Below the pieces are notes generated by a model, which was given only the letters and a program-made list of their open reading frames with translations, ran no database searches and was not told where the DNA came from. 64,000 nucleotides of DNA from Candidatus Shapirobacteria bacterium (GTDB lineage Bacteria > Patescibacteriota > Microgenomatia > UBA12405), in NCBI GenBank assembly GCA_041665485.1, contig JBAYIT010000002.1:261867-325866 (forward strand). The letters run 5' to 3'. Shown here piece after piece: positions 543-44,285 of the stretch (the stretch's first letter is position 1; every line of letters starts with the position of its first letter). The position numbers and the translations under genes were made by a program.

Positions 543-1570
543 TCCACCCCCCTCATTGCCAATCCCGCCGCCACTGTAAATCGGCAACCCTCACTGTCCA
601 AATCAAAGGGCACAGTTGCCACTCCTCGGTCAACTTTTAAAAATGGCTGTAACACCTGAACTTCTACTCCCAAAATTCTATTCAGTTCTTGCGACAAACC
701 CGGTAAATTCGCCCCGCCACCGCTCAAAATTAATAAGTTAATCATCCTATTCTCCTCCTCTCTAAAAAGCGCCATTGCCTTTCTTATTTCCTCCGCCATG
801 TTGGTAAAAACCGGCAAAATTGCGTTCTTAATTTTCCCTTCGAGCTCCGTTTCCCTCATCCCATAAACCTTTTTATATTCTTCCGCCGATGGCATATCCA
901 AACCCAAATTAACCGATATTGCCCGGGTTAATGATTCTCCTCCCACTGAAATCGATCTAGTGAAATAAACTTCGCCATCTTTTATTCCCACCATATCGGA
1001 ATATTTTTCCCCCATATCTATCACAATCGCGCTCTCTACCAAGTTGCCGACACTAAAATTAACTGCTCTCTTCATGGCAATCGCTGGCGATTCAATGGCT
1101 AGTAGATCGGTACCAATTATTTTAAACAGGTCAACGTATTTTTTAACTAAGTCATTTCGGGAGGCTATCACCAAAACCGCCATTTTTCCCGCCTCATCAG
1201 TCGACACTACTTCATAATCCATCGACACTTGATCCAAAGGGTAGGGGACAAAGGTTTCCGCCTCAAACTTCAAAGCATCCATTATCTCGGCCTCTTTTAG
1301 TGGTGGCAACCTCACCAATCGGCTAACAATTTTATCTTCCGGCAAACAGGTCACCGCCTGCCCGCCTTTAATTTTCATATCTGTCATTAGTTGTTTCACC
1401 ACTTCGGCCACTTCCCGCTTTGCCTTTTCGTCACTTGAGTCAGCCAGCCAGTCATTCCGTGGGCTTTTTACCTCTCCAATCGCCCCCAACACCACCTTCT
1501 CCTTTTCTTTAACCAAAGAGACTATTTTTACCGATCCCACACCAATATCTACCCCAAAAACTTGAGCCAT
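539..1570 (-). CDS. pilM: Type IV pilus assembly ATPase-like protein PilM (actin-like fold)
   Basis: 343 aa starting MAQVFGVDIGVGSVKIV, a typical PilM/FtsA-like N-terminus. It lies immediately upstream of the pilN-like ORF. Confidence 0.8.
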   Translation of the reverse strand: MAQVFGVDIGVGSVKIVSLVKEKEKVVLGAIGEVKSPRNDWLADSSDEKAKREVAEVVKQLMTDMKIKGGQAVTCLPEDKIVSRLVRLPPLKEAEIMDALKFEAETFVPYPLDQVSMDYEVVSTDEAGKMAVLVIASRNDLVKKYVDLFKIIGTDLLAIESPAIAMKRAVNFSVGNLVESAIVIDMGEKYSDMVGIKDGEVYFTRSISVGGESLTRAISVNLGLDMPSAEEYKKVYGMRETELEGKIKNAILPVFTNMAEEIRKAMALFREEENRMINLLILSGGGANLPGLSQELNRILGVEVQVLQPFLKVDRGVATVPFDLDSEGCRFTVAAGLAMRGVE

Positions 1571-1623
1571 AATTAAGTATCGAGCATTAAGTATTAACTA
1601 TCAAGTATCAAGTCTCTTATCTC

Positions 1624-1667
1624 TAATATCTAGGATCTAGGATCTAGGATCTAGGATCTAGGATCTA
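1624..1667. repeat. Heptamer tandem repeat (TAATATC)(TAGGATC)x4(TAATATC). The preceding ~50 nt (1571-1623) is built from related AAGTATC-like 7-mers.
   Basis: Direct reading of 1571-1667. Four perfect TAGGATC copies with degenerate flanking copies; each copy carries a GATC site. Confidence 0.9.
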
Positions 1668-2429
1668 ATATCCAATTCCTCCCATCGCCGACAAAGGCTC
1701 CAACATAAACGGCAAAATACTATACCGATCAAGTGTTCTCACCCGGCTTTTAACTGCTTCTCCTGTCAGATCTCCCGCCTGCCCCACCGCTGTTATTTGA
1801 TTGCCCTGTCCGGGAAAATTTACTGTTCCCCGTAAACTAAAATTAACCGAGGATAACCCCACCGGCGACACCGTCAACAACACCGGCACTCCCGTCAAAT
1901 TAACCGCCAGGCACCCGCCCGCCCCATCGAAATTAATCATTTCCCTTCTTACCTTAGAAACTCCACTTTCTCTATAGAAAAAATTAACGCTTGCTAGCCC
2001 GGTATAACTGCCAGCACAAACACTAACGCTACTCCCGCTGTAGTAGCCACTACTATAATTTAATTCTCCTCCCGCATCATGTCCGGCTAGCCAAAAATAT
2101 TGGTATTTACCGGGTAGAATTAGCTCATTAAAATCAAGTGTTGTTGAATTGCCAATCGTCTCAATCGTCACTTCCGCCCTACTTTTACCATCCGAGCTTC
2201 GATATTCTGTCTTTCCCAAAGAAGTCGTCGTCCCCGTTCCCAAAAAGTATTCAATTCCTGATTCGGCGGTATTAAACGCCTGTTTTTGCAATTCGTCATC
2301 AATATCGATCTTTGTTTCCAAAACAGTTTTTTTAGACAGCGACAACCCCAAAGTCGTAATTACCGCCGCCGCCAGCAATACCACCAGCGACACCTGCCCC
2401 TTATTTTTTGGAAATTGTGATTTTTTCAT
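1665..2429 (-). CDS. Hypothetical membrane-anchored protein in the pilM operon (N-terminal KGQVSLVVLLAAAVI hydrophobic segment; pseudopilin-like but lacking Glu+5)
   Basis: 254-aa ORF between the giant gene and pilM. It has an N-terminal TM/signal-like segment and no recognisable catalytic motifs. Confidence 0.5.
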   Translation of the reverse strand: MKKSQFPKNKGQVSLVVLLAAAVITTLGLSLSKKTVLETKIDIDDELQKQAFNTAESGIEYFLGTGTTTSLGKTEYRSSDGKSRAEVTIETIGNSTTLDFNELILPGKYQYFWLAGHDAGGELNYSSGYYSGSSVSVCAGSYTGLASVNFFYRESGVSKVRREMINFDGAGGCLAVNLTGVPVLLTVSPVGLSSVNFSLRGTVNFPGQGNQITAVGQAGDLTGEAVKSRVRTLDRYSILPFMLEPLSAMGGIGY

Positions 2430-2474
2430 TGGAACTTGTTTGGAAATTGGTTATTGGAAATTAGTAATTTTGCC

Positions 2475-5400
2475 TTAATTATAATTCCACCCCGACACTA
2501 TCCGTCCGATTATTGACGGCATACTAAACACAAAATCGGGTCGATATTTTATTGTCACTGCCGGGGCCTCGTTATTGTCTCCACTATCGCTAAACGATCG
2601 GTCGATTTTAATCTGGCTTGTCCCTCCGCTCGAATGTACTATCCCACTGATTGTCAAACCACTATCTAAATCTCCCCCAATATTAATATTTTTGTCGGCC
2701 ACAAAAACTCCTTCCGAATTTGTTACCTCCGATAAAAATGTCAAATCTCCACTACTTACCACCATTAAAAATTTATCTTGATTGACCGTATTATTTACAT
2801 CGATCGTCATGTTTCCGTCAACCAGAACTATTCCCGTTCCTCCAATTCCGGCTATCACCGAGCTCAAACTTGTTCCTGCCCCCACCACTTTAATTGAATT
2901 TAACTTTCCCACTAGACTTTGAGAGAAATAAGCATGATTATAAATACTCGATCCCATTAAGTTCCCACTTGGTCCTTTCCAAGACCAATTGTTGGGACTG
3001 CCAAAAAAAGCATTGTCGCCAGCCAACCCCTTGTTAATATCTATCGCTGTTACCAAGCCATTATCATTGGCCCCCGTCGCGCTTTCCACCGTCATTGCTG
3101 GCTTACAAGCGCTCGCCGATGCGCAAGTCATCGGAATTCGATTATTAATTGCACTACTCGCTCTAATTCCTCCTCCTACCACTTGATACCAAGCATCCTG
3201 GGTCAACACCACCGAAAAATCTACATCCAAATTTTGGCTAACCGCGTAAGCATCCAGGAAACCTGGAGTCAATACTAATCTAAAGTCCCCATTTACACAC
3301 ATCTGCGGTGACAAACGATTAACTCCGCTATAAATAAAAACTTCATATGTCCTGGCCCAATTAAGTTTTTCTCCGGCCGAGTCAGAGTAGTTTGGCGCCG
3401 ATACTGTCATTGTTTTATTACCATATCTTAGGCTGTAATCAATTGTCGACAAAGTATTAAATCCATTCCCATTGGCGCAGTTTGGTGTCCCAAAAGGAGC
3501 GTCCGACCCGTCATACAAACTCCCGGACACATTCACCTCGCAATTCCACACTTTAAAATCCCTATTAGTGTCCGTATTACTATTGGTTAGCCCCGATTTG
3601 TCAGTAATTGTCACCGATAGGGGATAGGTGCCAGTCCCATTATCGCTACCAGCAAAGTCCACTTCAGCCCGGGCAACTGCCCCGGCCAAAGTCATATTGT
3701 AATTTTTCCCGTTCCACCCCAACACCACCGAAGCAATATCCGCCAAACCATTACTGTCACTCACCCCTGCTTCAAATATCACTCTTCTCGGTATGTCTGA
3801 ATCCTGAAAAACTAACTCACAAATATGGTTTCGTCCGTCGCCAGTTGTTGCCACTGTTGCATCAGAATTCTTAATTGTAAACGACACCAGTTCTGGCGCA
3901 TTAGCCACCGGCGCCACCGGATGAGTTATCACAAAATAACGTGGCAAAGACCAAGCTGTTTCAACGCTACAGGTTTTGTTTTGTGCCGCTACTTGCCAGT
4001 AATAAACCACGTTATCAGAGAAAATCGAGCTGTTCACCACATACTGATTAGTCGCTATCCCCGCCAAAGTCATTTCTGTCACCATCACTCCCTCCCGATA
4101 AACAGCAAAGTAATAGCCATCAGTTAAAGCGTCAGTATTAGCGTTCCATCTAAAAGTTATTGTTGTTGCCGGATTAACAATTGTTTCCGGATCGCCCGAC
4201 GTTGTCCCCGAAGATACGGTTGTTGGTGTTGGCGGAATCCCTGCATCAGTGTTAGCGCAAAAATCACCACAGCCATTTTCCTGTCCGCAATAAGGAGCGT
4301 TACAAACACAGCTACAGCCACCGCAGTTATCACAACTAATTACCTTATTTGCCGTTGCCGACCAGCTTGAATCTTTACTGAAATTGTCCGTCGCTTTAAC
4401 CCGGCCGTAAACCGTTCCTTCACTCATCAAATTAGTGTAACTTTGCGAAGTTGCTGTTGTCACCGACTGCTGTAAACTTGTCCCCGAAAAATCGACAGTA
4501 TTGGCTGTATCTATCTGATAATTCTTCACCCCGGCGCAACCATTGTCAGACACTACCCCCCAGCTACCAGTTACATTAAATCTCCTCACCCCACCTACTA
4601 GTCCGTAATAAGAACAAGATAGTGCCAGCGACGGTGTCATTGGCCCCAGCGAGTCTGATTTCACCCACACTGGTGTAAACCCACTTCCAGTAGTTGATCC
4701 ATTTTTATATCTCGCCGTCACCGACACACAAGCATTTTGAGCCAAGCTCATCGGAACAGTGTAACTATCCACTTTTCCCGCCTTAATTACCGGGTCAGCT
4801 ATATCACTATTGGTAACATAAGTTTCTCTAATAGCGCACGCCCCAGCCACATCAACCCCCGTCCAATTCCAAGTCGGCGTCCCCGCCGACACGCAAGTAG
4901 CACTACTCCCGCCACAACTTGTTGTTCCGTTTGTACTTACCCCACTAATACTGCCAAACACTGGTGTCGAAGGTGGGGCACAATAGGTTGCCATCCCTCC
5001 GCAAATATCACTATCTACTGGCAAATTGGTGTTCCGATATTGAACACACATTTTCTTATCGCCATAAGTTGCTGAAACAGACTTGCTTTTTACTGCCACC
5101 ACTGGCTCCCAATCCTCCTGCCAGCGGGAATCATCAGCACTAATCCCAGCGCAACTTTCACTACTCCCCGGCTGCAAAAATCTCACCTGATTTACTCCCG
5201 TGTCATAGGCCAAGTTTATGCTAGCCGCCGGCGAACTCAAATAACAAGCACTATTTCTTGGGCTTGCGCTCCACTGGCTATAATTACAACCATTAAAATT
5301 GGCATCATTCCAGTCAACACACCTCGGCTTGGCGTAATACTGCGTCATCGCTCCGCATTTAGCCTTATCTTCGTTACTATTTTTGTATTCCACACACAAT

Positions 5401-8045
5401 TTCTTTTCCCCATACCCGCCAAGCGACAAGGTCCGGTTAACCGTTGCTGTCACCGGATTCCAAGTCGTCCAACCTGTCTGACTATCAGAAACCGAAGCGC
5501 AATCCCCACTGGCAATTTCTATAAATCGGTAGCTAGTCACTCCGGCGCTCCAACTTAAATTCACCGGCACGGTTGTCGAGGTAGTAAAACAAGCCGTATT
5601 TCTCGGGCTACTGTTCCACATCGCCCAACTACAATTATTAATTTTTATGTTTCCCCAGCTATCACACACCGGCAGGGCCACATAATACTCTGTCATCGCT
5701 CCGCATGGCAAGCTATTTCCATAGGTATTTTTGTATTGAGCACACAACTTTTTCTCCCCATATCCCGAACTCAAGACTTTATTTTTTGTTGCTGCCACCG
5801 TCTCCCAAGCCGACCACCGACTATCCTCCGAATCACCATCAACAATCACCGGAAAGCCGTCCACTGCACTACAGTTTTCGGCACCTCCTACTTCTGCAAA
5901 CCGAACATGAGTTGCCCCCAAATCCCAACTCAAATTTACCGGCACGGTGGTTGAAGCTGTCAAACAAGAAGCGTTCCTCGGACTAGAGTTATACATCGCA
6001 CTATCGCAGTTATTAATCTTCACACTGCTCCAACTATTACAACTCGGTGGACCTTCCACCAATTCATAACTCAACTCTGTTTCTACGTTGTATTGATTAG
6101 AAAAAACCACTTTGTGTGTCCCCAAGCTACTCGTCCCATTCCACATATTACTCGTCCCAGCCAAACAGGTGAAATTCCAGGTATAACTTCCACTTTTTGT
6201 TACCGTACAACCGTGTAAAAGTACATCTGCATTCTGTTGTATGGTTCCTCCGTCTTCTCTCCACACAATATTATTGTCATCATAATAGCTGGCATTACTT
6301 TCTCCACCCCGCGTCGTATCATGCAACCTCACTTTCGCCGGTACCCCATCTGCTCCGGCAACAGTCACCGTAAAACTCACACTCCCTCCCGGTAAAACTT
6401 TTGGTGTGTTCATCACTCCACTTGCCCTTCCTGGGTCAAAACAATTGGTTACAATATTCCCCACCTCCGTCCCTTTCACATAAGCCTGGGCGCAAACTTT
6501 CCCTCCACTGTATTTCCAATCTGCCCCCCAAGGCGCGCTTTGCGCCGGCTCACCATCTTCACCCGTACACATCACTCCTGAAACAGTACAACTTTCAGCA
6601 TATCCGCGGGGAGTGTACAAACTACTTGTAGAAGGGCCAATCTTAATCTGTGTTTCCAAATTACAACAACCGCTTGGATCAGCATCTCTCGCCGCCTCTG
6701 GGTTAGGTGAATAGCCAAATTTTGATGGAATATCCGCCACCCTAACATCAAACCTGTCAGAGTTACTTCTATTTGTCCTAATATTAGGGTTAATAACAAT
6801 TGTTGATCTGCTCGGGTAATCAACTGGGTTGCATGGGGCAAACGTTGGTAACTTTCCACAACAATACTGCGTTCCATTTCTTTCGCAATAATTATCACCA
6901 TCACTACTTTCACTACAATTTTGTCCGTCCAAACCTTTTCCCGAAGGGCACCATTCATGTTGTCCGGGAGCGTCTCCACACTGGCTATCCAAAAAACAAT
7001 CAGTGTTTCTGGCCGGGGCACAAGCCGGCGGGCCACAATCAACAGTACACGCATTATAACGACAACATTCTCCAGATGGACACTGAGAATCAGACGTACA
7101 TCCCGGTGGCACCGGTGTATTCGTCGCTATCGGCGCCACTCCTCCGCATGTCCCTCCACATCCATCACTCCCTCCATCCGCCACCCCAACGCAGTCAGGA
7201 GTACAAGTCCAACTACAATCTCTAATCGGGCAAGACGCCGAAGAACAGTGAGACATTTGGCAATCCTCCCGATTTGTAAATCCGCAAGATATCGCCCCCG
7301 ACCCTGCCCCCGCTACACAGTCTCGGGTACAAGTACCCAAGTCACCTAACCCACATGGTGCAGAAACATTGTCACAAGTCCCACCACCAGGAGTACAACT
7401 ATAAACATAACTTCCACACTCATATGTTCCCCAGCAAGTTCCTGCAGCCATCGCTGGTCTAACCAGTTTCCAGCCAACCTTCGACTTACGAACCAGGCGA
7501 ATAAATTGGCTCTCCCTGGAATATTTACCGGCAACCTGGTTACATCGGGTGTCATCGTCAAATCTGTCGTTATATCTCGACTGAAAACAAATCATTTTTA
7601 ACACGCCAAATGTCGTTCTCCGCCAAATGTACGGTATATTGTTTCGATCCGTCAACTCCACCAATGTCTCCGGTGAATAATAAATTCTGGCCTGATTAGT
7701 CAAAATTCTATTTTGATATCTAAAGCCAAAGGCTTGAAATGGCGGTTTATTAACATTCGAAAACAATTTATAATCATTTTCGACCTTACCACTCAGCACT
7801 ATCTCTAGTCGCAATGGCCAAACAATCTTTGGCCTACTAATTTGCTCTCGCACCCCACCACCCCAATAATTAATCTCTCCCAAAAAAGCATTAAATTGTC
7901 TCCAATCAATTATTTGTAATTCATATTCCTGTACTTCCGAAACCAGCTTCACTCGTGTTAACGTCACATAGCCAATAACCACCAACAAAAATACTAACAA
8001 CAAAACCAATAACTTCTTCACACACTCATAATAACAAAAAATCAA
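2475..8045 (-). CDS. Giant (1856 aa) cysteine-rich repeat-containing cell-surface protein, N-terminal TM anchor; putative T4P-associated adhesin
   Basis: Single uninterrupted ORF. TTG start directly after the TAG stop of the upstream lipoprotein gene. Residues 11-30 form a hydrophobic helix. Residues ~195-410 carry about 40 Cys. Three tandem ~115-125 aa repeats (motifs NNCSWAMWNSSPRN and GYGEKKLCxxYKNT). Gly/Ser/Thr-rich C-terminal beta-like region. Confidence 0.7.
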   Translation of the reverse strand: MIFCYYECVKKLLVLLLVFLLVVIGYVTLTRVKLVSEVQEYELQIIDWRQFNAFLGEINYWGGGVREQISRPKIVWPLRLEIVLSGKVENDYKLFSNVNKPPFQAFGFRYQNRILTNQARIYYSPETLVELTDRNNIPYIWRRTTFGVLKMICFQSRYNDRFDDDTRCNQVAGKYSRESQFIRLVRKSKVGWKLVRPAMAAGTCWGTYECGSYVYSCTPGGGTCDNVSAPCGLGDLGTCTRDCVAGAGSGAISCGFTNREDCQMSHCSSASCPIRDCSWTCTPDCVGVADGGSDGCGGTCGGVAPIATNTPVPPGCTSDSQCPSGECCRYNACTVDCGPPACAPARNTDCFLDSQCGDAPGQHEWCPSGKGLDGQNCSESSDGDNYCERNGTQYCCGKLPTFAPCNPVDYPSRSTIVINPNIRTNRSNSDRFDVRVADIPSKFGYSPNPEAARDADPSGCCNLETQIKIGPSTSSLYTPRGYAESCTVSGVMCTGEDGEPAQSAPWGADWKYSGGKVCAQAYVKGTEVGNIVTNCFDPGRASGVMNTPKVLPGGSVSFTVTVAGADGVPAKVRLHDTTRGGESNASYYDDNNIVWREDGGTIQQNADVLLHGCTVTKSGSYTWNFTCLAGTSNMWNGTSSLGTHKVVFSNQYNVETELSYELVEGPPSCNSWSSVKINNCDSAMYNSSPRNASCLTASTTVPVNLSWDLGATHVRFAEVGGAENCSAVDGFPVIVDGDSEDSRWSAWETVAATKNKVLSSGYGEKKLCAQYKNTYGNSLPCGAMTEYYVALPVCDSWGNIKINNCSWAMWNSSPRNTACFTTSTTVPVNLSWSAGVTSYRFIEIASGDCASVSDSQTGWTTWNPVTATVNRTLSLGGYGEKKLCVEYKNSNEDKAKCGAMTQYYAKPRCVDWNDANFNGCNYSQWSASPRNSACYLSSPAASINLAYDTGVNQVRFLQPGSSESCAGISADDSRWQEDWEPVVAVKSKSVSATYGDKKMCVQYRNTNLPVDSDICGGMATYCAPPSTPVFGSISGVSTNGTTSCGGSSATCVSAGTPTWNWTGVDVAGACAIRETYVTNSDIADPVIKAGKVDSYTVPMSLAQNACVSVTARYKNGSTTGSGFTPVWVKSDSLGPMTPSLALSCSYYGLVGGVRRFNVTGSWGVVSDNGCAGVKNYQIDTANTVDFSGTSLQQSVTTATSQSYTNLMSEGTVYGRVKATDNFSKDSSWSATANKVISCDNCGGCSCVCNAPYCGQENGCGDFCANTDAGIPPTPTTVSSGTTSGDPETIVNPATTITFRWNANTDALTDGYYFAVYREGVMVTEMTLAGIATNQYVVNSSIFSDNVVYYWQVAAQNKTCSVETAWSLPRYFVITHPVAPVANAPELVSFTIKNSDATVATTGDGRNHICELVFQDSDIPRRVIFEAGVSDSNGLADIASVVLGWNGKNYNMTLAGAVARAEVDFAGSDNGTGTYPLSVTITDKSGLTNSNTDTNRDFKVWNCEVNVSGSLYDGSDAPFGTPNCANGNGFNTLSTIDYSLRYGNKTMTVSAPNYSDSAGEKLNWARTYEVFIYSGVNRLSPQMCVNGDFRLVLTPGFLDAYAVSQNLDVDFSVVLTQDAWYQVVGGGIRASSAINNRIPMTCASASACKPAMTVESATGANDNGLVTAIDINKGLAGDNAFFGSPNNWSWKGPSGNLMGSSIYNHAYFSQSLVGKLNSIKVVGAGTSLSSVIAGIGGTGIVLVDGNMTIDVNNTVNQDKFLMVVSSGDLTFLSEVTNSEGVFVADKNINIGGDLDSGLTISGIVHSSGGTSQIKIDRSFSDSGDNNEAPAVTIKYRPDFVFSMPSIIGRIVSGWNYN
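4982..6041 (-). repeat. Three tandem coding repeats (~345-375 nt each) inside the giant protein gene (aa ~669-1022)
   Basis: The protein segments CNSWSSVKINNCDSAMYNSSPRNASC..., CDSWGNIKINNCSWAMWNSSPRNTACF... and CVDWNDANFNGCNYSQWSASPRNSACY... each end with a GYGEKKLC/YGDKKMC...YKNT/YRNT motif. Confidence 0.85.
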
Positions 8046-9755
8046 CTACCTAACTATCTTCAAAAGAGTTTTCATTGTCTCTAGAGACTCCATTTTCCCA
8101 TCCCACACCTTAGAGCTAATTTCTCTCAAAATACGTGTCGGTTCGCCAGAATTATCAACAGCCAAAACATCACCTCTTCCACTCAGGACGTTACCATCAT
8201 TATTAGTGGCAGACAACAGTAAGTGACCAACACGACTAGAAAGCTGCATATCGACCGCAGCACTAGCAACACGCTCCGGAACCTTATAGTCTTTTTGAAC
8301 AGAAACTTCTGTATCAAAAAACTGGCCAACAATAAGCAACTTTCCCCCAACCAAAACTAAATTAATATTGCTCTGTGTCGACAAATTAAGTGGTAAAGTT
8401 GGATATCCGCCTTCCACTGTCGCTATGTCAAAGACTACTCCTACATCCACTGTCGGCTTTCCATTCTTAACTTCTAATTTCCAATCACGAATTTGTCTGT
8501 CCTGGTTTTTATTGGGACTATCGACGCCACCATCAACTGCCGGAATCTTAAGAACCACCTCTCCTTTTTTCACCATCCCCACCCATTGATTATAAGTAAC
8601 ACTAGCTCGGCCGGTTACATCATCGCTCACCCACGACCGCCAAACCATTTTTAATGCCATCGCCACATGTTCTTTGGCTGCATCCTCTCTAGCCACCACA
8701 ATCCCTTTATAATCCCGCTCTGCCTCAAATCTATCAGTGTAACCAACCGATAAATTTACCTGTATTCCATCCACCTCCGCACTCAATGGCAGTTCAAAGG
8801 CTATCGGGTATAAAGCCATCTTTTGGCTTTCTACCTCTTTGTTTACCGCCGTTGGCGCCGCGTCGACTTTAGCTGGAGTAGGGGAGGCGGGTGGAGTCGG
8901 AGCAGAAGTTGGAGGAACCTGGGCGGTAGCCACCTGTGCCAACGCCACCTGTTCCCAATCTCTATCCAACGAGTCAAATCTCCAACTAATCTTTCCATCA
9001 ACCGAAACAATTGAGAGATTACCCAAAGAGTCAACCATCACTTTCTCTCCAGGCTTGAATTCTCTCCATCCCGCTAAAATTGGAGCTACTGCGTTTCCCT
9101 TTCCATCCCATGCTTGAACCATAGGACCATCGGCTCCTGTTGAAAATACTGCTACAGAAATGGCATAAGCTTCAGAGTCAACGTCTGTTGGTAACAAGTA
9201 TTCCTTCCCATCAGAACTCTTATATCTAGCCAAACCCCCACTACCCGTATGTTCTACAAAAGTGTATGTCTGTCCACCAAAAGAAAGACTATTCGGAGCG
9301 TCAAGTATTCTTGCACTTGTTCCGCCATCATAAAGCCTAGTTGAACCTTCACCGGTTCCCAGTGTCGCCAAAGTTCTCCCTTCTCCAAAATTAGTTGTTT
9401 GACCAATTTGGTCAGTACTCAAAGATGCAGACGCCACCCCCTCTGCTCCAATTGCTAACCTTTTTACATTGTGATCCAAAATTACTGGCCTGGTTGCCTT
9501 CTCCTTAACTGGTGTGTTCGCCACATAAGGAGCACTTATCGGTTTAACTTCTGTTGGTACTCCATTCGGTTCTCCTCTTGTCGGGCTTGGTGCTCCAGTC
9601 GCCGGTGGAGTTGTCGGTTCAAGAGACTTCACCGCCTCTTGCCCACCAGCACAACCACCAGTAAGATATGTCGTGGCCACAAAACCCAAGGCCCCTAAAC
9701 CCCTCTTCAAAACATTACCAAAAGATATCTCTGGACTCTTATTCATCCTATTCAT
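8046..9755 (-). CDS. Lipoprotein (lipobox LTGGC), two domains separated by Pro/Thr-rich linkers; translationally coupled to the giant protein gene
   Basis: N-terminus MNRMNKSPEISFGNVLKRGLGALGFVATTYLTGGC. PT-rich linkers (TTPPATGAPSPT, PPTSAPTPPASPTPA). Its stop codon TAG at 8046-8048 abuts the TTG start of the giant gene. Confidence 0.7.
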   Translation of the reverse strand: MNRMNKSPEISFGNVLKRGLGALGFVATTYLTGGCAGGQEAVKSLEPTTPPATGAPSPTRGEPNGVPTEVKPISAPYVANTPVKEKATRPVILDHNVKRLAIGAEGVASASLSTDQIGQTTNFGEGRTLATLGTGEGSTRLYDGGTSARILDAPNSLSFGGQTYTFVEHTGSGGLARYKSSDGKEYLLPTDVDSEAYAISVAVFSTGADGPMVQAWDGKGNAVAPILAGWREFKPGEKVMVDSLGNLSIVSVDGKISWRFDSLDRDWEQVALAQVATAQVPPTSAPTPPASPTPAKVDAAPTAVNKEVESQKMALYPIAFELPLSAEVDGIQVNLSVGYTDRFEAERDYKGIVVAREDAAKEHVAMALKMVWRSWVSDDVTGRASVTYNQWVGMVKKGEVVLKIPAVDGGVDSPNKNQDRQIRDWKLEVKNGKPTVDVGVVFDIATVEGGYPTLPLNLSTQSNINLVLVGGKLLIVGQFFDTEVSVQKDYKVPERVASAAVDMQLSSRVGHLLLSATNNDGNVLSGRGDVLAVDNSGEPTRILREISSKVWDGKMESLETMKTLLKIVR

Positions 9756-9776
9756 ATCCTATAATCTAACATCCAA

Positions 9777-9804
9777 ATTATACCCCATTTTCCCCCCAAA
9801 TCAA
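9777..9804 (-). promoter_or_regulatory. Near-consensus sigma70-type promoter (TTGATT-16nt-TATAAT) for the lipoprotein/giant-protein/pilMN operon
   Basis: Minus strand: -35 TTGATT (rc of 9799-9804), a 16-nt spacer, then -10 TATAAT (rc of 9777-9782). The ATG at 9755 lies about 15 nt downstream of the predicted TSS. Confidence 0.6.
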
Positions 9805-9838
9805 GCAGGAAAATATGTACATACCAACTGTGTATACC
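9790..9838 (-). promoter_or_regulatory. Copy 1 of a conserved ~49-nt intergenic element (minus-strand reading ATACACAGTnnnTATGTACATATTTTCCTGCTTGATTTGGGGG) containing the palindrome TATGTACATA and the -35 hexamer
   Basis: Nearly identical to 12740-12788. The palindrome sits immediately upstream of the -35. Confidence 0.6.
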
Positions 9839-9891
9839 TAATCATACTATTAGTCGTTTACTAATCTAAGTTACTAGAAGCAATATAAAAA

Positions 9892-11169
9892 CTATTTTGC
9901 CAGATCGATTTCTTTTTCGTTGATATCGCCACAGATGGCAAGCAATGATCTGGCCGGATCGAGGTATTTGGTTGCTGTAGTTTTGACCAGGTCGCAATCG
10001 ACTTTCTCAAGATCTTTAGTGTATTCTTGAACTGTCCACGGTTTGTTACTGTCGATAAATTGTTTGTAGGCATGGAAATTTACGATTGATTCAGATGTTT
10101 GAAGGTTAAGTCGGCTTGATTTAATAATCTTGTTTTTTACAAACTCAAGTTCTTGTGTTGATAAACCAACTTCTGTCAGAGTAGTTAACTCTGACTCGAT
10201 TAATTCGATGACTTTTTGAAAGTTGGACTTGGAAGTTGCAGTTTGAAAACCCCATACACCACCGTCAAATAACTGGTCGTGCCATGAATTGATACCATAG
10301 ATCAAACCATTTTCGTAACGAAGTCGGGTAATTAGCTTTGAAGAGCGACTGGATGCTAAAGCTTGTATCATAATAGATAAGGCAGGATTTAAGGAATTAA
10401 AAATATTACCAGTCCTAAAGGCATAGGAAAAAGTGATTTGGTCGTTTTGGCTAAACTTTTCAATCAGTACTCTTTTTTTTTGGTTTATCTCTAAATCTTT
10501 TTTGGGAGTTTTGATAATAAACTTTATCGATTCCAAAAATGCGAATTCATTTTTGATTACATCAATTGAAATGTCGCCACTGGTGACAAGAACCATCTGA
10601 CCAGTTAGTATATTATTCTGATAATAAAATAGGATGTCTTCTTTTTTAATACTTTTAATTGACTCCTCTGTTCCCAAAGTTGATCTGCCTAAAATGGTGT
10701 TTTGAAAAAATAGCTGACGATTTACGGTACCAATTGCCTTACTAGGATTTGATTTTCGATCAGAAAGTTCACGGTAGATTGCTTGGCGTTCGTTTTCAAT
10801 TATCTTATCTTCAAAGATCGGATTAAAGATTATTTCTTTTAGGACTTCCGAGGCAATGGGGATGTCGTGGGGATCACCAAGAGACAAATTGATGGTTAAA
10901 TTATCCATGCCAGTGACGGCACCAAGAATTCCGCCATTATTTTCAACGTAAGAAGCCAGTTTGTCTTTGGATGGATGTTTTTTAGTACCAGCTACCAATA
11001 GATGTTCTAAAAAATGAGAAGAACCTTCAATATCGTCAAATCGGGAGCCAGCAAAAAAAAGGCATCGTATGGCCAATGGTGCGCCACTTCGACGAAAATT
11101 AACAATTTTAATACCGTTTTTTAATTTGACTGTTTCGAGAGAAAGATTAAGATCACTTAATTTAAGCAT
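9892..11169 (-). CDS. M16 family zinc metallopeptidase (pitrilysin/insulinase-like, HxxEH motif)
   Basis: 425 aa containing GSSHFLEHLLVAGT, the inverted zinc-binding motif HFLEH of the M16 family. A TGCTATTAT extended -10 lies 10 nt upstream of the ATG. Confidence 0.75.
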   Translation of the reverse strand: MLKLSDLNLSLETVKLKNGIKIVNFRRSGAPLAIRCLFFAGSRFDDIEGSSHFLEHLLVAGTKKHPSKDKLASYVENNGGILGAVTGMDNLTINLSLGDPHDIPIASEVLKEIIFNPIFEDKIIENERQAIYRELSDRKSNPSKAIGTVNRQLFFQNTILGRSTLGTEESIKSIKKEDILFYYQNNILTGQMVLVTSGDISIDVIKNEFAFLESIKFIIKTPKKDLEINQKKRVLIEKFSQNDQITFSYAFRTGNIFNSLNPALSIMIQALASSRSSKLITRLRYENGLIYGINSWHDQLFDGGVWGFQTATSKSNFQKVIELIESELTTLTEVGLSTQELEFVKNKIIKSSRLNLQTSESIVNFHAYKQFIDSNKPWTVQEYTKDLEKVDCDLVKTTATKYLDPARSLLAICGDINEKEIDLAK

Positions 11170-11318
11170 ATATATGACAATAATAGCATTTGTGTGTGAA
11201 GAGCGGGAGGAATTGGAATAAAATTTTGTTTTGTTTTTTTTATTTTTGTTCCTCCCGCCCAGCGGGAGGAGTGCTTGGAATTTCTCCCAAACACTCCAAC
11301 CGTTACGGGTTGACCAGA

Positions 11319-11462
11319 CTAGCCTTCGTAGCTACCTGAGTCGTAGCTGCTGTCGCTGTCGCCGGCGCTTGAACCATCGCTCGATGGACCATTGCCCATA
11401 TCAGAGCCGGTATCGCCATCGCCTGGATCACATGCCATCAAAAACTTGTGAAGCTTGTACAT
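11319..11462 (-). CDS. Small acidic Asp/Ser/Gly-rich protein (47 aa), not in the ORF track
   Basis: Minus-strand ATG (rc of 11460-11462) preceded by AAAAGGAGAAAATC, a strong GGAG Shine-Dalgarno at 6-nt spacing that is rare in this window. Translation is MYKLHKFLMACDPGDGDTGSDMGNGPSSDGSSAGDSDSSYDSGSYEG* with a TAG stop. Upstream lie a TTGTAA-16-TAGAAT promoter and a ~190-nt leader. Confidence 0.4.
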   Translation of the reverse strand: MYKLHKFLMACDPGDGDTGSDMGNGPSSDGSSAGDSDSSYDSGSYEG

Positions 11463-11690
11463 GATTTTCTCCTTTTACTGGACTTGTGGTTTGATCGATC
11501 AACGAGATACTGAGGTGTGGTTTCTTGGTTGTTTTTTATCTTTCGATAAACAACTCCTTTCTGGGTTTAACCCGATTGTAAAAGAACCTTTGTCGTTTTG
11601 CATGCTGAGCGTTTTCAGTTGCACGACATCATATTCTACCATAAGATACGTAATTTACAATATATCTGGTTAGTATGTATCGTGTATGTA

Positions 11691-12515
11691 TTACTTAATC
11701 CCGTAATGGTCGAAAAATATTTCCATCGGAGAACGAAAAGATAAAACTCGGAGTGGAAAACAATCAACAAGTTGGTTTAGGTCGTTAGCTTTAGGTAATG
11801 ATTCTTGGAATTGTCGATATCTTTCTATGTTTACACCTCCATCATTGGACAAAAATTGTCCCCAAAGAGAATTGCTGCGAAAATTTAATTCAGGAGGTCG
11901 GACGGTTGTAGCATTATCAACGAAAGCAGATGGTAACGAGGCTATGACCCCTGGAAAGCTATTCATCCAAGAAACTAAAGTTACCCATTTAGGATTAAAT
12001 GAATTGTTGTTTTGAATTCGATTGCGGACAGATTGAAATAATCTAGTTAAATCTTGGATTCTATCCGATGTAAATTGCCTTGAAAAATCACTTTTGGGTT
12101 GACCTCGACGCTGGTTTACGAAATGTATTTCTACTTTTTGGTCGCCGGTTGGTCGGTCAATTGCCAGTTTTTGGACAAAGCTTCCAAAATATTCACCCTC
12201 AAATTGATTCGATTTGTCGTTATATATACTGTGAGGCTGTCTAGTATAAAATTGCCAAGTTTGATCGGTGGTGTCTTGATCTTCCGACAGTCCTTTGGCA
12301 AATTCGATCCATTTTGGGTCGGATCCTTTTGAAGATGGATTTCTGCCAACCAAATGACGGTATATAACTGTATAGTTGAGAATGGAACTCTGAATATCGG
12401 GTGACAATCCTAATTGTAATACTCTGTCTGCAAAAGATGTTTGTGCTTGAAAATAACCTTTTGAATACACGTAAAGTGTCGGTTGATACAATTCTATTTC
12501 TGAACTTTTGGACAT
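11691..12515 (-). CDS. Hypothetical protein (no recognisable motif)
   Basis: ORF track 11691-12530. The start is moved to the ATG at M6 (MSKSSEIELYQ...) because a TGATACAAT extended -10 (rc of 12521-12529) lies 5 nt upstream, implying a leaderless transcript. Confidence 0.5.
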   Translation of the reverse strand: MSKSSEIELYQPTLYVYSKGYFQAQTSFADRVLQLGLSPDIQSSILNYTVIYRHLVGRNPSSKGSDPKWIEFAKGLSEDQDTTDQTWQFYTRQPHSIYNDKSNQFEGEYFGSFVQKLAIDRPTGDQKVEIHFVNQRRGQPKSDFSRQFTSDRIQDLTRLFQSVRNRIQNNNSFNPKWVTLVSWMNSFPGVIASLPSAFVDNATTVRPPELNFRSNSLWGQFLSNDGGVNIERYRQFQESLPKANDLNQLVDCFPLRVLSFRSPMEIFFDHYGIK

Positions 12516-12739
12516 GACATATTGTATCAAATATCCTGTGGTTACGTAGATATTTTTAAGTTATCTGTCTTCCCAACCAAATCCATAATCTCGACAAACA
12601 TTTAGTAGTAACAATGGTTACTACCGGTAATTATATACTGGATTATAACCTTCCTCCTTCCTTAGGCTAACAAACTGAGGAAAAGGGGAGTAGATATTCC
12701 TTATCAAATTATATAGAGAAAAGAAAAATCATTTCACCC

Positions 12740-12788
12740 CCAAATCAAGCAGGAAAATATGTACATATTGACTGTGTATTAAATATCA
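12740..12788 (-). promoter_or_regulatory. Copy 2 of the conserved ~49-nt element (palindrome ATATGTACATAT + TTGATTTGGGGG)
   Basis: Direct comparison with 9790-9838. It lies in the intergenic region upstream of the 11691-12515 gene. Confidence 0.6.
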
Positions 12789-12801
12789 ATTCCCCACTTT
12801 T

Positions 12802-13119
12802 TTACCCACTAGCCAAAGTGTAATACCTATCCTCCAAATCTTGTGGCAACATCGCCACCGGCTCAATTAACACATTATATTTATTGCCAATCATTGCCAT
12901 TTTTACCCGATCGTCATATCTGTCTTTTATATTTTTAGAAATTACACAAACATCAATATCACTGTCTCTTGTTTGTTTGCCCTTAGCCCACGACCCAAAC
13001 AAAACACACCTCGCATCAGCACAGCCACTTTCCCTAATATCTTTTTTAAACAATTGCAGCATTTTTATTATTTTTTTAAAATTTGCCCTTTCAACCGCCT
13101 TTTTCTTTTCCATAACCAA
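12802..13119 (-). CDS. Minimal nucleotidyltransferase (MNT/Pol-beta superfamily) domain protein, antitoxin-like, no HEPN partner in cis
   Basis: 105 aa with GSWAKGKQTRDSDIDVCV, the GS...DxD nucleotidyltransferase signature. Confidence 0.65.
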   Translation of the reverse strand: MVMEKKKAVERANFKKIIKMLQLFKKDIRESGCADARCVLFGSWAKGKQTRDSDIDVCVISKNIKDRYDDRVKMAMIGNKYNVLIEPVAMLPQDLEDRYYTLASG

Positions 13120-13176
13120 TTATCTCTTATTTCTTATCTCTTACTGCACCCGTCTACTGACGGGTCTCTTATTTCT

Positions 13177-13185
13177 TAGTATAAT
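13177..13185 (+). promoter_or_regulatory. TAGTATAAT -10 element 6 nt upstream of the glycosyltransferase ATG (leaderless-type promoter); preceded by the hairpin ACCCGTC-TACTG-GACGGGT (13147-13165)
   Basis: Read directly from the sequence. Confidence 0.5.
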
Positions 13186-13191
13186 CATCCC

Positions 13192-14406
13192 ATGTCCCAC
13201 AAACGCAATATCTTAATGATCTGCCCCTATCTACCCCGCCTCTCCCAATCCGGTGGCCAAAGAAGTTCCTATTATTCAATCAAATATCTGGCTCCAAAAA
13301 ATAAAATCACTCTCATTTGTTTTAGTCGCGACGAAGACGGCCTGAAAGACATAAAACAGTTTTGTCACAAGGTTATCGTCGTCAAACGGGGAAAAACCTG
13401 GGACCTAAAAAAAGTTCTCATGGCCGCTTTTAGTCCTTACCCCTTCCTGGTTGTCAACTACATTAGCCAGGAACTAAAAACAACTATTCAAAACGAGCTC
13501 GATCACCACCATTTCGACCTCATTCACTGTGACTGTTTCTACCCTATGCCCAATATTCCCAAAACCGAGGTTCCCATCGTTTTAGTCGATCTTACCATTG
13601 AATATTCTGTTTATCAGCACTTTGTTGAAAGCCTTAAAGGTATTAAAAAACTCCTCACTCCCATTCTTCAGCTTGATGTTCTTAAATTAAAATATTGGGA
13701 AACCCATTATTGGAAAAATTCCCACACCGTTGTTGCCTTTGGTCAGGACGATCAAAAAATTATTTCTCAAGTCACCGGCCGAAAAGACATTCAATATTTC
13801 CAAAACGGTGTCGACCAGAAATATATTGATGCTTCCATTAAAACCCCAAAAACTAAAAAGCCATCCATTCTTTTTGGTGTTTCCAACATGAAGTGGATGC
13901 AAAACAGCGAATCAGTTGACCTAATTCTTAAAAAATACTGGAGTAAAATCAAAAAACAAATTCCTGCCTGCCAGCTCTATATTGTTGGCCGGTTTGCTCC
14001 GGAATTCTTTGGTAAATACCAGTCAAAAGATATCATAGTCACCGAAGCTGATATTGATGGAGAAGCCCACGATCCTCAGTTTTATTACCAGCAAAGTTGG
14101 CTTTTGCTCGCCCCCATGGCCAGTGGCGGCGGCACCCGCAATAAATTCCTCGAAGCCATGGCCTTTAGTCTCCCCATCATTACCACCAAAGACGGCATGG
14201 GTGGCATAAACATTGAAAATTATCGTCACGCCATTGTTTGTCCGGAAAAGGACATTGTCAAAAATGTCGTTAAACTGGTTAAAAATAAAAAGTATCGTGG
14301 GCAAATAGGGGATGATGCCAAAAAGTTAATCGCCGATAAATACAGCTTTGAAAAATGTGTTGAAGGCCTAAACCAAATCTACGACTCCATCACCACCAAT
14401 ATCTAA
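13192..14406 (+). CDS. Glycosyltransferase family 4 (GT-B, group 1)
   Basis: 404 aa. C-terminal GGTRNKFLEAMAFSLPIITTKDGMGG matches the GT1/GT4 EX7E-type motif region. Confidence 0.7.
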   Translation: MSHKRNILMICPYLPRLSQSGGQRSSYYSIKYLAPKNKITLICFSRDEDGLKDIKQFCHKVIVVKRGKTWDLKKVLMAAFSPYPFLVVNYISQELKTTIQNELDHHHFDLIHCDCFYPMPNIPKTEVPIVLVDLTIEYSVYQHFVESLKGIKKLLTPILQLDVLKLKYWETHYWKNSHTVVAFGQDDQKIISQVTGRKDIQYFQNGVDQKYIDASIKTPKTKKPSILFGVSNMKWMQNSESVDLILKKYWSKIKKQIPACQLYIVGRFAPEFFGKYQSKDIIVTEADIDGEAHDPQFYYQQSWLLLAPMASGGGTRNKFLEAMAFSLPIITTKDGMGGINIENYRHAIVCPEKDIVKNVVKLVKNKKYRGQIGDDAKKLIADKYSFEKCVEGLNQIYDSITTNI

Positions 14407-14430
14407 GATCTAGGATCTAAGAACTAAGAT

Positions 14431-14931
14431 CTAATTCCTCAGTGTTACTCTCGATTCAAAAACCTTACTAACAAAATCTTTGACCCCGCCACTGGCATTA
14501 CCCGCGCTCAATACAAATTTCACCACTATTCCCGACACTGGCCCTAGCGCCCCGTTCTCACATCTCACAAACTCATCACATCCCGACAATATTACCTCCC
14601 CTCCGGTTAATTTGGCCGAATTTGAAGCTACCCTTCCGGCATTATCACATTTGAGGAGTGTTTCCTCGCCGTCCCTAACACTATCAAAACTTAAGCTACT
14701 GCCCACCCCAACAGGGCAAACCACCGTCTCCTTATTGGCATTAAGTAAATTTTTTCTAATTTCTTCCAAAGCATAATTGCCGTTAGCCGACAATAAATCA
14801 GTCATCCTAGTTAAGTTTCTGGCCTGCAGGCTACTAAGTAAAATTCCCGTCACCGCCACCATCATCAATCCAATTATCCCCGTCACCACCACCATTTCAA
14901 TCAGTGTAAATCCCCGCCTATTTTTTTTCAT
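14431..14931 (-). CDS. Type IV (pseudo)pilin, prepilin-type N-terminal cleavage/methylation domain
   Basis: MKKNRRGFTLIEMVVV, a class III signal with G-F-T-L-I-E. Confidence 0.8.
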   Translation of the reverse strand: MKKNRRGFTLIEMVVVTGIIGLMMVAVTGILLSSLQARNLTRMTDLLSANGNYALEEIRKNLLNANKETVVCPVGVGSSLSFDSVRDGEETLLKCDNAGRVASNSAKLTGGEVILSGCDEFVRCENGALGPVSGIVVKFVLSAGNASGGVKDFVSKVFESRVTLRN

Positions 14932-14979
14932 TTTTTAAAATTTAGAATTTAAAGTTGTTTAGAAATTAGAAATTGGAAA

Positions 14980-15390
14980 TTAGAAATTTTTACTGAAAAA
15001 CCTCTTAACTTCTAAATAATTATCTTTTTTGTCTGTCCAACTTACTCCCACCGTTGCTTCAACACAGTCAGTCACTCCGATATTGCAACTCGGGCTAGCG
15101 CTGGACAAGGAAAAACCTATCGAATAAGTGTAATTATTAAAACTACTCATTGTTTGGGAACTAACTTCGTTCAATTGCCAAAAAATCGCCGGATTATTGG
15201 TTTTATCGTTAATTAAATTTTCCATTACCGTTTCTGCCAATCTCGTTGCCTTTTTTCTCGCCAACCCCTGGCTTCGAGCCGATACCGACATCAACAGAGC
15301 AATCACGGCCCCGGTTAAAAACAACACAATTATCACCACCGAAAATACCACCTCCACCAAACTCTGTCCTTTGTCTTTATTGGCCATCAA
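14980..15390 (-). CDS. Type IV minor pilin-like protein
   Basis: MMANKDKGQSLVEVVFSVVIIVL, with G-Q-S-L-V-E. Confidence 0.65.
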   Translation of the reverse strand: MMANKDKGQSLVEVVFSVVIIVLFLTGAVIALLMSVSARSQGLARKKATRLAETVMENLINDKTNNPAIFWQLNEVSSQTMSSFNNYTYSIGFSLSSASPSCNIGVTDCVEATVGVSWTDKKDNYLEVKRFFSKNF

Positions 15391-16763: not shown

Positions 16764-17210
16764 CTAATTCCCGCATACAACATATAAATTAGTCTCCACT
16801 GTCAATCCAATCCCACAAACCTTGTGAGTTGCATCCTGGCAGTTAAGTTGCGATCGACTATTGTCTCCGCCCACCTCTCCTCCCAGCCCCACACACAGCT
16901 GAAATCCATCACCACCGTTAATCTGGCTATAAGTAAAACCGATTTGGCCAATATTAGGTAAATAAGGGGTTAGTGTCGCCCCGACATCAACACTGGAAAG
17001 GGGATAACCTTGGGTATCATTATAAAACATTCTTAGGGCATTCTTCACTGCCACCAGGTCTTCTTTCTTCTTGGCATCTTCTGCTCTTTGTCTTGCTCCC
17101 ATAAAGTTTGGCAACAAAATCGCACTTAAAACCGCAATAATCGATATTGCCACCAACAACTCCACCAACGTAAACCCTCGTCTATGTTTGATTAGTTTTA
17201 AAAATTTCAA
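16764..17210 (-). CDS. Type IV pilin-like protein
   Basis: ...KHRRGFTLVELLVAISIIAVLSAILLPNF. Confidence 0.8.
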   Translation of the reverse strand: MKFLKLIKHRRGFTLVELLVAISIIAVLSAILLPNFMGARQRAEDAKKKEDLVAVKNALRMFYNDTQGYPLSSVDVGATLTPYLPNIGQIGFTYSQINGGDGFQLCVGLGGEVGGDNSRSQLNCQDATHKVCGIGLTVETNLYVVCGN

Positions 17211-17254
17211 ATTAAAAATTGATTAAAAATTAAAAATTTCAAATTAAAAATTTT

Positions 17255-19361: not shown

Positions 19362-19607
19362 TTACCGTTTCTTGAAAATTTTATCCATTCCAACCCTTTT
19401 GTCATAATTCTTCATCGCTTCGGCCACTATTTTTTCCAACCTCTCTGTCGCTCTATAAATTTTTCCACTTTTTTCCTCTTTCTTCTCCACCAATAGATAC
19501 CTTATATAACTCGACACCGTCAATCCATTACTTTTAGCTTCCGCCAAAGCAAAATCTCTCAACTCAACCGGCAAATTAAATTTAACTTGAATTTGTTTTG
19601 TAATCAT
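19362..19607 (-). CDS. Ribbon-helix-helix (CopG/Arc-like) putative transcriptional regulator
   Basis: MITKQIQVKFNLPVELRDFALAEAKSNGLTVSSYIRYLL. The start is moved to the ATG at 19607 because TGTATAAT (rc of 19614-19621) lies 6 nt upstream. The ORF track start at 19625 would precede the promoter. Confidence 0.5.
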   Translation of the reverse strand: MITKQIQVKFNLPVELRDFALAEAKSNGLTVSSYIRYLLVEKKEEKSGKIYRATERLEKIVAEAMKNYDKRVGMDKIFKKR

Positions 19608-22785: not shown

Positions 22786-22865
22786 ATGTTAATACTACAA
22801 GAATTTCAATTTAAAATTTGAATTTAAAAATTGATTAAAAATTAAAAATTTAAAATTAAAAATTA

Positions 22866-43619: not shown

Positions 43620-44285
43620 ATTAAATATTACCTATCTTAAGGAATAACCTATCTATACCCTGCCAACTTCTGGTTGGAGAAGTCCAAAAATCGGCTTTGA
43701 GCCTAAAAACAAATTTTTTCAACCAACCCCCAAACCGGAGAATTATGGTCATTTAATTAGTTAATTATAAAATTTTATTTTTTAATAATTGAAAATTGTA
43801 AATTGAAAATTGAAAATTAGTTTTTGTGTCCTCCCCTCCCTTTCTATTTTAACATACGTCGCAAAACATACATTGTGCGACATACCATTTTAGCATGCTA
43901 GGGCCCCGGGGGAAAGAGCAGAAAACATTTACTCACCTATCCTAAAATAAATAATGACAATTCATGTATTACGGATCACGATTTACGTATCACGAACTAC
44001 CATCCCCTTAACCTAGCACTCTCGCATCTTCTCTGGCGACAAATTAACTTTTCCACAAGACTGTATCACTCTATATCACCTATCCTATAATTATTATAGG
44101 TCCCACCCTGTGAAAATTATAGGATAAAACGTGAAAATCGACTTTACCCACCTCCCCTCTCCCCCACCCCCCCACCACCTAAGAAAAATTCTTAAATCCT
44201 AATTTCTAATTTCTAAATTATTTTTTAAATTCTTAAATTTTTCTAAATTCTAGACTCGTAGATTCTTAAATTCCTGATTCCAAGC

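Follow-up and report, generated by a model that had tools for sequence, protein, structure and literature searches.

An intergenic promoter-like repeat at both ends of a gene block of opposite strand composition in a Candidatus Shapirobacteria genome

Members of the Patescibacteria, or candidate phyla radiation (CPR), have tiny genomes with few regulators, and pili are central to their episymbiotic lifestyle. To our knowledge, almost nothing is known about cis-regulatory DNA in these bacteria. The systems with which a short intergenic repeat can be compared include att-flanked islands without an integrase (cis-mobilisable elements), integron cassettes, and activator-dependent (class I/II) or UP-element-assisted sigma-70 promoters. 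Putative mobile promoters (PMPs) are a further such system and have reportedly been treated by Matus-Garcia et al. (NAR 2012) beside Nijveen, Matus-Garcia & van Passel (2012). PMPs are recognized by an identity of 80% or more across 50 nt or more, within the range -150 to -50 of the start codon, and other promoter-bearing small repeats include the Correia elements of Neisseria, ERIC and REPIN (PMC3575422). Here, a repeat designated element E is described from a 64-kb stretch of DNA (the window), which is part of a 334,682-bp contig (ENA ERZ27249449, k141_819467) of Candidatus Shapirobacteria (CPR/Patescibacteria). The two copies of E in the window, copy 1 (c1) and copy 2 (c2), enclose a gene for a 274-aa protein and a gene for an M16 peptidase.

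The consensus ATACACAGT(N3)TATGTACATATTTTCCTGCTTGATTTGGGGG has two exact matches in the window, both on the minus strand (9793-9835 and 12737-12779), and the number of matches to this 43-nt consensus expected by chance is 0.00 even at three mismatches, as estimated from dinucleotide-preserving shuffles. Over the 43 nt the copies differ solely in the 3-nt spacer, which is TGG in c1 and CAA in c2. A gapped alignment lengthens the repeat through GAAAATG/TGAAATG to an identical TATAATTTG in both copies, so that the extended unit measures about 62 nt in c1 (9835 to 9774) and 75 nt in c2 (12779 to 12705). Identity between the copies is 90% over 50 nt, and their differences sit at both ends of a 31-nt identical centre. 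The original prediction for this DNA had described a near-identical intergenic element in two promoter regions, oriented as the downstream genes, differing at about three positions and containing a palindrome that is longer in c2 (TATGTACATA in both copies, ATATGTACATAT in c2), and all of this was borne out; its coordinates were correct for c1, whereas those for c2 (12740-12788) were displaced by about 3-9 nt. The same copies are carried by a 99.7-99.9% identical Joint Genome Institute (JGI) contig (3300037810) and by contigs from two Logan samples.

The 43-nt repeat is significant, but the 10-nt palindrome by itself is not. With up to one mismatch, the palindrome alone gives two matches in the window against 1.3 expected and is not enriched, and TGTACA occurs 11 times against 9.5 expected. 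No third good copy of the element was found in the window or in the 2.3 kb beyond it. Dozens of copies in random orientation, named in the original prediction as the finding that would speak against it, do not occur within the sequence available. An element-like stretch of 40 nt (CAATAT..TATTTTCCgGCTTaATTTGGG.TGAAAT) was noticed at 44375-44424 (-), inside the open reading frame (ORF) 44286-45068. Its alignment score of 39, compared with 27.9 +/- 3.0 for null sequences, was reached by 1 of 40 of these. This stretch was rejected as a third copy of E, as it encodes IYLFSGLIWAE, a conserved C-terminal part of a family of 260-aa membrane proteins whose homologues align over their full length. It is native coding sequence with no insertion, and its resemblance to the element is probably due to chance.

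Relatives of the window were found by using M16 homologues as anchors. The closest relative found, contig L040 (M16 86% identical in amino acids, with 71% identity at third codon positions), carries three copies of the element (La, Lb and Lc) in 8.4 kb, all on one strand. A profile search with nhmmer detected no copy of E in the M16 relatives of 83% identity or less (L041-L045, L062 and L063). In the alignment of the five copies, the positions of TA.GTA...ATTT.CCTG.TTGATTT are invariant. Conservation is highest in an asymmetric run of 18 nt that includes the -35, and not in the palindrome. Four of the five copies keep the asymmetric ATTTTCCTGCTTGATTTG exactly, whereas the palindrome is intact in c1, c2 and La but broken in Lb (TATGTAACCA) and Lc (TACGTACATA). 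La is the most degenerate copy, with three core substitutions. All five copies are intergenic, and three of the four whose downstream sequence is known face a downstream gene on the same strand; behind Lc the contig ends.

Downstream of M16, c1 and Lc lie at orthologous positions and share a 24-nt core (GTACATATTTTCCTGCTTGATTTG) without a mismatch, whereas the remaining intergenic DNA there is unalignable. The chance of 24 consecutive matches at a neutral identity of about 0.71, computed from the M16 third positions, is about 3e-4. Because the core is identical amid unalignable DNA, and because third codon positions are only 71% identical, the core appears to be under purifying selection, and its conservation in a second genome makes a sequence-specific function of the element likely. 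Copies c1 and c2 resemble each other more than the orthologous copies of the two genomes do. Logan contigs L069 and L070 stop inside the 31-nt identical stretch of c2, and L040 stops 8-11 nt after Lc. Short-k-mer assemblies are expected to break at repeats, so these breaks in Logan contigs from three samples argue that the element is repeated in those populations and give hints of further copies in the L040 organism.

The DNA enclosed by c1 and c2 has a strand composition opposite to that of its surroundings. The plus-strand skew of G over C at third codon positions (GC3 skew) of the other genes examined in the window (40 of 40) ranges from -0.18 to -0.74, whichever strand is coding; since they share one sign irrespective of coding strand, the whole window can be assigned to one replichore. 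Only M16 (+0.36) and the 274-aa gene (+0.28), the very genes that c1 and c2 enclose, depart from this, and strand skew makes each relocated gene recognizable by itself in this window. The third-position G:C count of the block (plus strand) is 166:81, which differs from that of each flank with p ~1e-24. The block coincides with a stretch (9907-12542) that is 82% identical to L041. The corresponding block of L041 (L041:6529-9369; 274-aa gene, 48-aa ORF and M16) also has a skew opposite to that of its neighbours (G:C 70:148 vs 542:207, p ~1e-26). This block alone is on the plus strand among minus-strand genes, in a context unlike that of the window, which would fit an inversion or insertion in L041 as well; a search for repeats around it in L041 gave none. 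The M16 skew is concordant with that of the neighbours in L043, L062 and L063, and the M16 neighbourhood differs in each of six genomes. In L040, the direct copies La and Lb enclose a NUDIX/Ham1 block that is distinct from either flank (p = 7.5e-5 and 2e-4), whereas no difference was seen between the flanks themselves (p = 0.69). A homologue search with the Ham1 protein of L040 returned no orthologue from the genome of the window. Dating of the relocation by polarised third-position substitutions in M16 was attempted and set aside, the signal being too weak to use. On the best reading, the block arrived in its present orientation relative to replication too recently to have taken on the local composition.

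The reading that we tentatively favour is that E is a conserved, lineage-specific repeat of promoter/operator type, the copies of which served as recombination junctions. The pairing of c1 and c2 is less suggestive of a shared regulator than of a two-gene block that was relocated, with one copy at each junction. The element would be a repeat of about 45-75 bp dispersed through intergenic DNA, with no carrier found so far beyond this Shapirobacteria population and the closest relative sampled, and an asymmetric core of 24-26 nt within it would be retained by selection as a protein-binding site of promoter/operator type. The sigma factor of RNA polymerase would contact TTGATT, and the upstream A/T-rich palindromic part would be contacted by a regulator or by the C-terminal domain of the RNA polymerase alpha subunit (alpha-CTD).

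Copy 1 has the features of a complete sigma-70 promoter (TTGATT-16-TATAAT, 10/12 consensus matches) and is predicted to drive the lipoprotein/giant-protein/PilX-like/PilMNO operon. It spans about -47 to -89 relative to the lipoprotein start codon, and its -10 sits 22-31 nt ahead of the two candidate lipoprotein ATGs; no other promoter-like site was called on the same strand in the 145-nt intergenic region upstream of the lipoprotein gene. In c2, TTGATT lies 29 nt from the homologous TATAAT, and the sole -35 at a usable distance is GTGAAA (12737-12732), with an 18-nt spacer. Promoter models across bacteria, including a CPR species, use -35/-10 spacers of 15-19 nt (PMC12641261). Such spacing is found in c1 only and is not a property of the element as a family, so that the earlier assignment of TTGATT as a -35 holds for c1, with its perfect TATAAT at 16 nt, but fails for c2. 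Copy 2 would be at best an auxiliary upstream promoter (GTGAAA-18-TATAAT), and a possibly redundant one because the 274-aa gene has a proximal promoter of its own.

The 274-aa/M16 block may have moved to its present place by recombination between copies of E, leaving direct repeats, with c2 as the second junction. One route would be the recombination of circular or incoming DNA carrying one E with a resident E. One redundant copy is expected after such recombination, which fits the decaying La as well as c2, in which a 13-nt insertion breaks the -35/-10 spacing. The differences between c1 and c2, placed at the ends of the 31-nt identical centre, are such as a crossover between already diverged copies would leave. 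The repeat and its conservation, the promoter geometry of c1 and the discordant composition of the block are observed directly; that proteins bind E, that it acts as a promoter and that recombination produced the second copy is what we infer.

Several points weigh against this reading. The skew boundaries do not coincide with the copies of E but lie 42 nt and 172 nt inward of them, and the arms of c1, c2, Lb and Lc, when compared, do not show the hybrid pattern predicted by a simple crossover model. Element E could stand at the borders of the block without having caused its move, as promoters naturally sit at the borders of operons. In both genomes M16 has a copy of E on either side, so that the order E-M16-E may also be old, c1 and c2 having undergone gene conversion afterwards. 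The hexamer TTGATT does not serve as a -35 in all copies, because -10-like hexamers lie at 16 nt in c1, 29 nt in c2 and 23 nt in Lb (TAAATT); La has no -10, and no canonical -35/-10 pair was found in any L040 copy. The promoter activity of every copy is a prediction. The skew signal of L040 is weak, and an all-base two-breakpoint fit picks another partition there (1347-4952). The comparison covers five distinct copies in two genomes.

A shared operator, as put forward in the original prediction, is a doubtful explanation of the pair. A dimeric regulator bound to the TATGTACATA palindrome upstream of the -35 would co-regulate the surface-protein/pilus operon and the 274-aa gene, and the duplication would otherwise be meaningless. 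The palindrome is perfect in c1, c2 and La, its place beside the -35-like hexamer is conserved, the core is kept between genomes, and in c2 the palindrome centre would lie at -61.5, the classical class I position, if the TATAAT at 12713-12708 is the -10. A fixed class I-like placement was nevertheless not recovered: under the assumed start sites the centres lie at -48.5 (c1), -61.5 (c2) and -55.5 (Lb), neither constant nor in helical phase, and the distance from palindrome to -10 varies by 13 and 7 nt among the copies. The palindrome, broken in two of the five copies, is less well kept than the asymmetric part 3' of it, and it is not enriched in the 64 kb. La, moreover, faces the 3' end of a convergent gene.

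The pairing of the two copies is poor evidence that the 274-aa gene is co-regulated. Copy 2 is located 222 nt upstream of this gene (about -222 to -264 relative to its start codon), and the gene has its own proximal extended -10, which lies within the 2.66-kb stretch 82% identical to L041. Contig L041 keeps the TGtTACAAT-ATG arrangement (L041:6615-6645) although it lacks the element; the 274-aa transcript is presumably leaderless. A shared operator also leaves the discordant composition of the bracketed block unexplained, whereas relocation by recombination accounts for the pairing without a shared regulon.

Site-specific movement of the block is unlikely. Under this explanation E is an att-like site at which a trans-acting recombinase, such as the Xer-like protein encoded at 42681-43619 or one encoded elsewhere, moves integrase-less cassettes bounded by E, in the manner of cis-mobilisable elements or integron cassettes. 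Direct repeats with 31-43 identical nt do flank a 2.9-kb block of foreign strand composition, L040 has a second discordant block bracketed by E, the context of M16 is different in every genome examined, the strongly conserved asymmetric core has a short central palindrome, and there is a tyrosine recombinase gene in the window. That gene, however, is the only one in the window and is 30 kb away, with no recombinase in or adjoining either block, and inspection of E found neither two inverted arms around a 6-8-bp overlap nor a fit to the dif or attC consensus. No empty site or circle junction was seen in assembled contigs; of four contigs with the nucleotidyltransferase gene, two are arranged as in the window and two end within E. 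The same facts would follow from ordinary homologous recombination between repeats. A bolder form of the explanation, to which we give an equally low probability, is that E is the recognition site of a CPR cassette-shuffling system with its recombinase in trans, the 274-aa/M16 and NUDIX/Ham1 blocks hopping between E sites that double as promoters. Every insertion would then arrive with, or land behind, a ready-made promoter.

It is quite unlikely that E is a functionless small mobile element, such as a miniature inverted-repeat transposable element (MITE) or a repetitive extragenic palindrome (REP), or the neutral remnant of a segmental duplication kept alike by gene conversion. Its multi-copy, intergenic occurrence in one lineage only would suit such an origin, as would the greater likeness of c1 and c2 to each other than to orthologous copies across genomes and the three Logan contigs that end in E or 8-11 nt after it, as short-k-mer assemblies do at repeats. 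Against this stand the absence of terminal inverted repeats, target-site duplication and stable hairpin, the presence of only two copies in about 66 kb, the lack of anything related in phage, plasmid and viral collections, and the core, which is identical despite about 29% neutral divergence, a pattern that gene conversion within one genome cannot explain. E is very unlikely to act at the RNA level, whether as a small RNA, as a conserved 5'-leader or through an ORF for a small peptide: although c1 has a potential local hairpin, UUUUCC...GGGAAAA (z = -2.0; weaker in c2 and Lb), and tiny opposite-strand ORFs lie behind AGGAAAA-ATG, the consensus fold has an energy of just -0.95 kcal/mol and lacks a covariation term, c2 and the leaders downstream are no more stably folded than shuffles (z = +0.24, -0.17 and -0.12), Rfam has no match, and the tiny ORFs are of 3 to 21 codons and unconserved, with sense frames that are interrupted or lack start codons.

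Searches of larger collections gave no further carriers. The 18-mer TTTTCCTGCTTGATTTGG, the final GG of which excluded copies of the L040 type, had 38 single matches in unrelated taxa among species-representative genomes, with flanks about 25% identical to E, and these were rejected as chance. In metagenome contigs, a 26-mer had no match, which is weak evidence of absence as the collection does not hold JGI sample 3300037810, a known carrier; the degenerate pattern TANGTANNNATTTNCCTGNTTGATTT gave 15 loci there, all in coding or unrelated DNA. Contig L056 had a good profile score but was rejected as a carrier, having no long ORFs and looking eukaryotic. No element-like sequence was found in viral contigs or in phage and plasmid collections. 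Only tRNAs exceeded the Rfam gathering threshold in the window, and within 9500-13200 the sole Rfam match at E <= 1 was the unrelated Rhino_CRE (11189-11260; 23 bits vs a threshold of 45).

Other identities were tried for E and rejected. E holds no open frame, which speaks against the remnant of a gene, for instance a decayed HEPN partner of the nucleotidyltransferase, and no conserved ORF is present in either orientation. There is no tRNA-like match at either copy that would make a tRNA fragment serving as an att site. The consensus sequences of dif, attC, the NrdR-box, the LexA-box, the FNR half-site, IHF and Ter do not fit by eye. An RNA structure, small RNA or riboswitch was discarded for want of an Rfam match and of a significant or conserved fold.

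The window contains a type IV pilus cluster on the minus strand, which extends from about 22.8 kb down to position 1 and encodes PilB, PilT, PilC, pilins, prepilin peptidase and minor pilins. The cluster is interrupted, in this order, by a plus-strand glycosyltransferase gene, a 103-aa nucleotidyltransferase gene, copy 2, the 274-aa gene, two 47-codon ORFs, the M16 peptidase gene and copy 1. It resumes past the interruption with genes for a 566-aa lipoprotein-like protein, an 1848-aa protein, a PilX-like protein and PilM/N/O. No Pfam domain was detected in the lipoprotein or in the 274-aa protein, and no similarity between the two. The 566-aa and 1848-aa proteins (2475-9746, -), which have no Pfam domain, form a near-orphan pair of surface proteins within the pilus cluster; for the former, a search of 5.8 billion proteins gave one homologue, a partial one encoded on a GC-rich contig that lacks E. 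The 47-48-codon ORF directly upstream of M16 is conserved in several genomes (window 11319-11462 (-), L041:7713-7859, L062:2-115). Its product is an acidic Gly/Ser/Asp-rich peptide (MYKLHKFLMACDPGDGDTGSDMGNGPSSDGSSAGDSDSSYDSGSYEG), which could be a substrate or partner of the M16 peptidase.

The Xer-like tyrosine recombinase at 42681-43619 (-) contains Phage_integrase and SAM-like N-terminal domains and is the only recombinase seen in the window, 30 kb off the element. The 81-aa protein at 19362-19607, suggested in the original prediction as a ribbon-helix-helix (RHH) candidate, has no Pfam match. YebC, the other binder suggested there, is encoded at 45052-45741. The release-factor ORF at 56197-56913 (+) has PCRF and RF-1 domains but no N-terminal part, and may reflect a prfB-type programmed frameshift or a wrong start. 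Many intergenic regions directly upstream of start codons are filled by four to six tandem 7-nt units, including ATCTAGG, TTAGAAA, AAATTTA, AATTGAA, TTTAAAA and others; this period-7 architecture is absent from both copies of the element.

Table. Features of element E, of the bracketed block and of the surrounding DNA (positions are those of the window)
Feature	Position	Strand	Basis or remark
Element copy 1 (c1), 43-nt shared stretch	9793..9835	-	consensus match, alignment
Palindrome TATGTACATA in copy 1	9814..9823	.	sequence
TTGATT of copy 1, -35-like	9799..9804	-	promoter scan
TATAAT of copy 1, -10	9777..9782	-	16 nt past TTGATT; predicted promoter of lipoprotein/giant-protein/PilX-like/PilM/N/O operon
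Element copy 2 (c2)	12737..12779	-	consensus match, alignment; begins 23 nt past nucleotidyltransferase stop codon
Palindrome TATGTACATA in copy 2	12758..12767	.	extended to 12-nt ATATGTACATAT at 12757-12768
TTGATT of copy 2	12743..12748	-	29 nt from TATAAT, beyond 15-19 nt sigma-70 spacer range
TATAAT of copy 2	12708..12713	-	homologous to copy 1 -10
13-nt stretch in copy 2 only	12717..12729	-	alignment; between AAATG and -10
TTTTCCTGC			stretch of element E
Proximal extended -10 TGaTACAAT of 274-aa gene	12521..12529	-	ends 6 nt before ATG at 12515
Block of opposite strand composition (274-aa gene, small ORFs, M16)	9877..12565	-	two-breakpoint maximum-likelihood boundaries
Flank, giant protein and lipoprotein			third-position G:C (plus strand) 303:669
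Flank, nucleotidyltransferase, glycosyltransferase and pilin			third-position G:C (plus strand) 72:225
M16 peptidase	9892-11169	-	
Small 47-codon ORFs of bracketed block	11499-11642, 11319-11462	-	
274-aa gene	11691-12515	-	protein without domains
La	L040, between CYTH and NUDIX		reads antisense into 3' end of convergent NUDIX gene
Lb	L040, divergent region between Ham1 and M16		290 nt upstream of M16
Lc	L040, downstream of M16		8-11 nt before contig end
Period-7 repeat tracts	1572-1667, 13120-13143, 14401-14434, 14959-14988, 17198-17253, 22802-22869, 28412-28451		
Period-7 repeat tracts (continued)	43787-43818, 44186-44273, 51086-51155, 51818-51852, 52018-52049, 56161-56192		

The 24-nt identical intergenic core is a rare and concrete candidate for a protein-binding site in CPR bacteria, ahead of a surface-protein operon associated with the type IV pilus. 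The most interesting by-product is the strand-skew evidence for relocation of the bracketed block. In genomes with an extreme replication-strand bias, GC3 skew marks recently moved blocks at the resolution of single genes, and here a dispersed repeat is found at both ends of such a block. Should this pattern recur across the whole genome, it would reveal the way in which these genomes reshuffle their gene order; otherwise, E is an ordinary duplicated promoter.

Among the known systems, cis-mobilisable elements and integron cassettes share with this locus the direct repeats of tens of nucleotides around a small block of atypical composition and contexts that differ among relatives. The E block differs from them in having no linked recombinase, no attC-type R''/R' boxes, no dif-like 11-6-11 arrangement and no observed excision products, and E is asymmetric apart from the 10-12-nt palindrome. 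Class I/II and UP-element-assisted promoters are matched by c1, which has an A/T-rich palindromic segment directly upstream of the -35, canonical spacing and a perfect -10, whereas this geometry is not kept in the other copies. Correia elements, ERIC and REPIN are, like E, short dispersed intergenic repeats able to give neighbouring genes promoter elements; E differs in lacking terminal inverted repeats, overall dyad symmetry, a stable hairpin and target-site duplication, and its copy number is low in the sequence seen. The likeness to PMPs lies in a near-identical non-coding sequence upstream of non-homologous genes in one genome, with 90% identity over 50 nt, above the threshold for this class, and in a stretch that includes the -35 and has no association with a known insertion sequence. 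Two features set E apart from PMPs, as c2 is outside the range of -150 to -50 (PMC3575422) and the copies also bracket a block of discordant strand composition. This block is a concrete hint that the pair arose by recombination between copies, and E is probably best filed as a new, lineage-specific example of a PMP.

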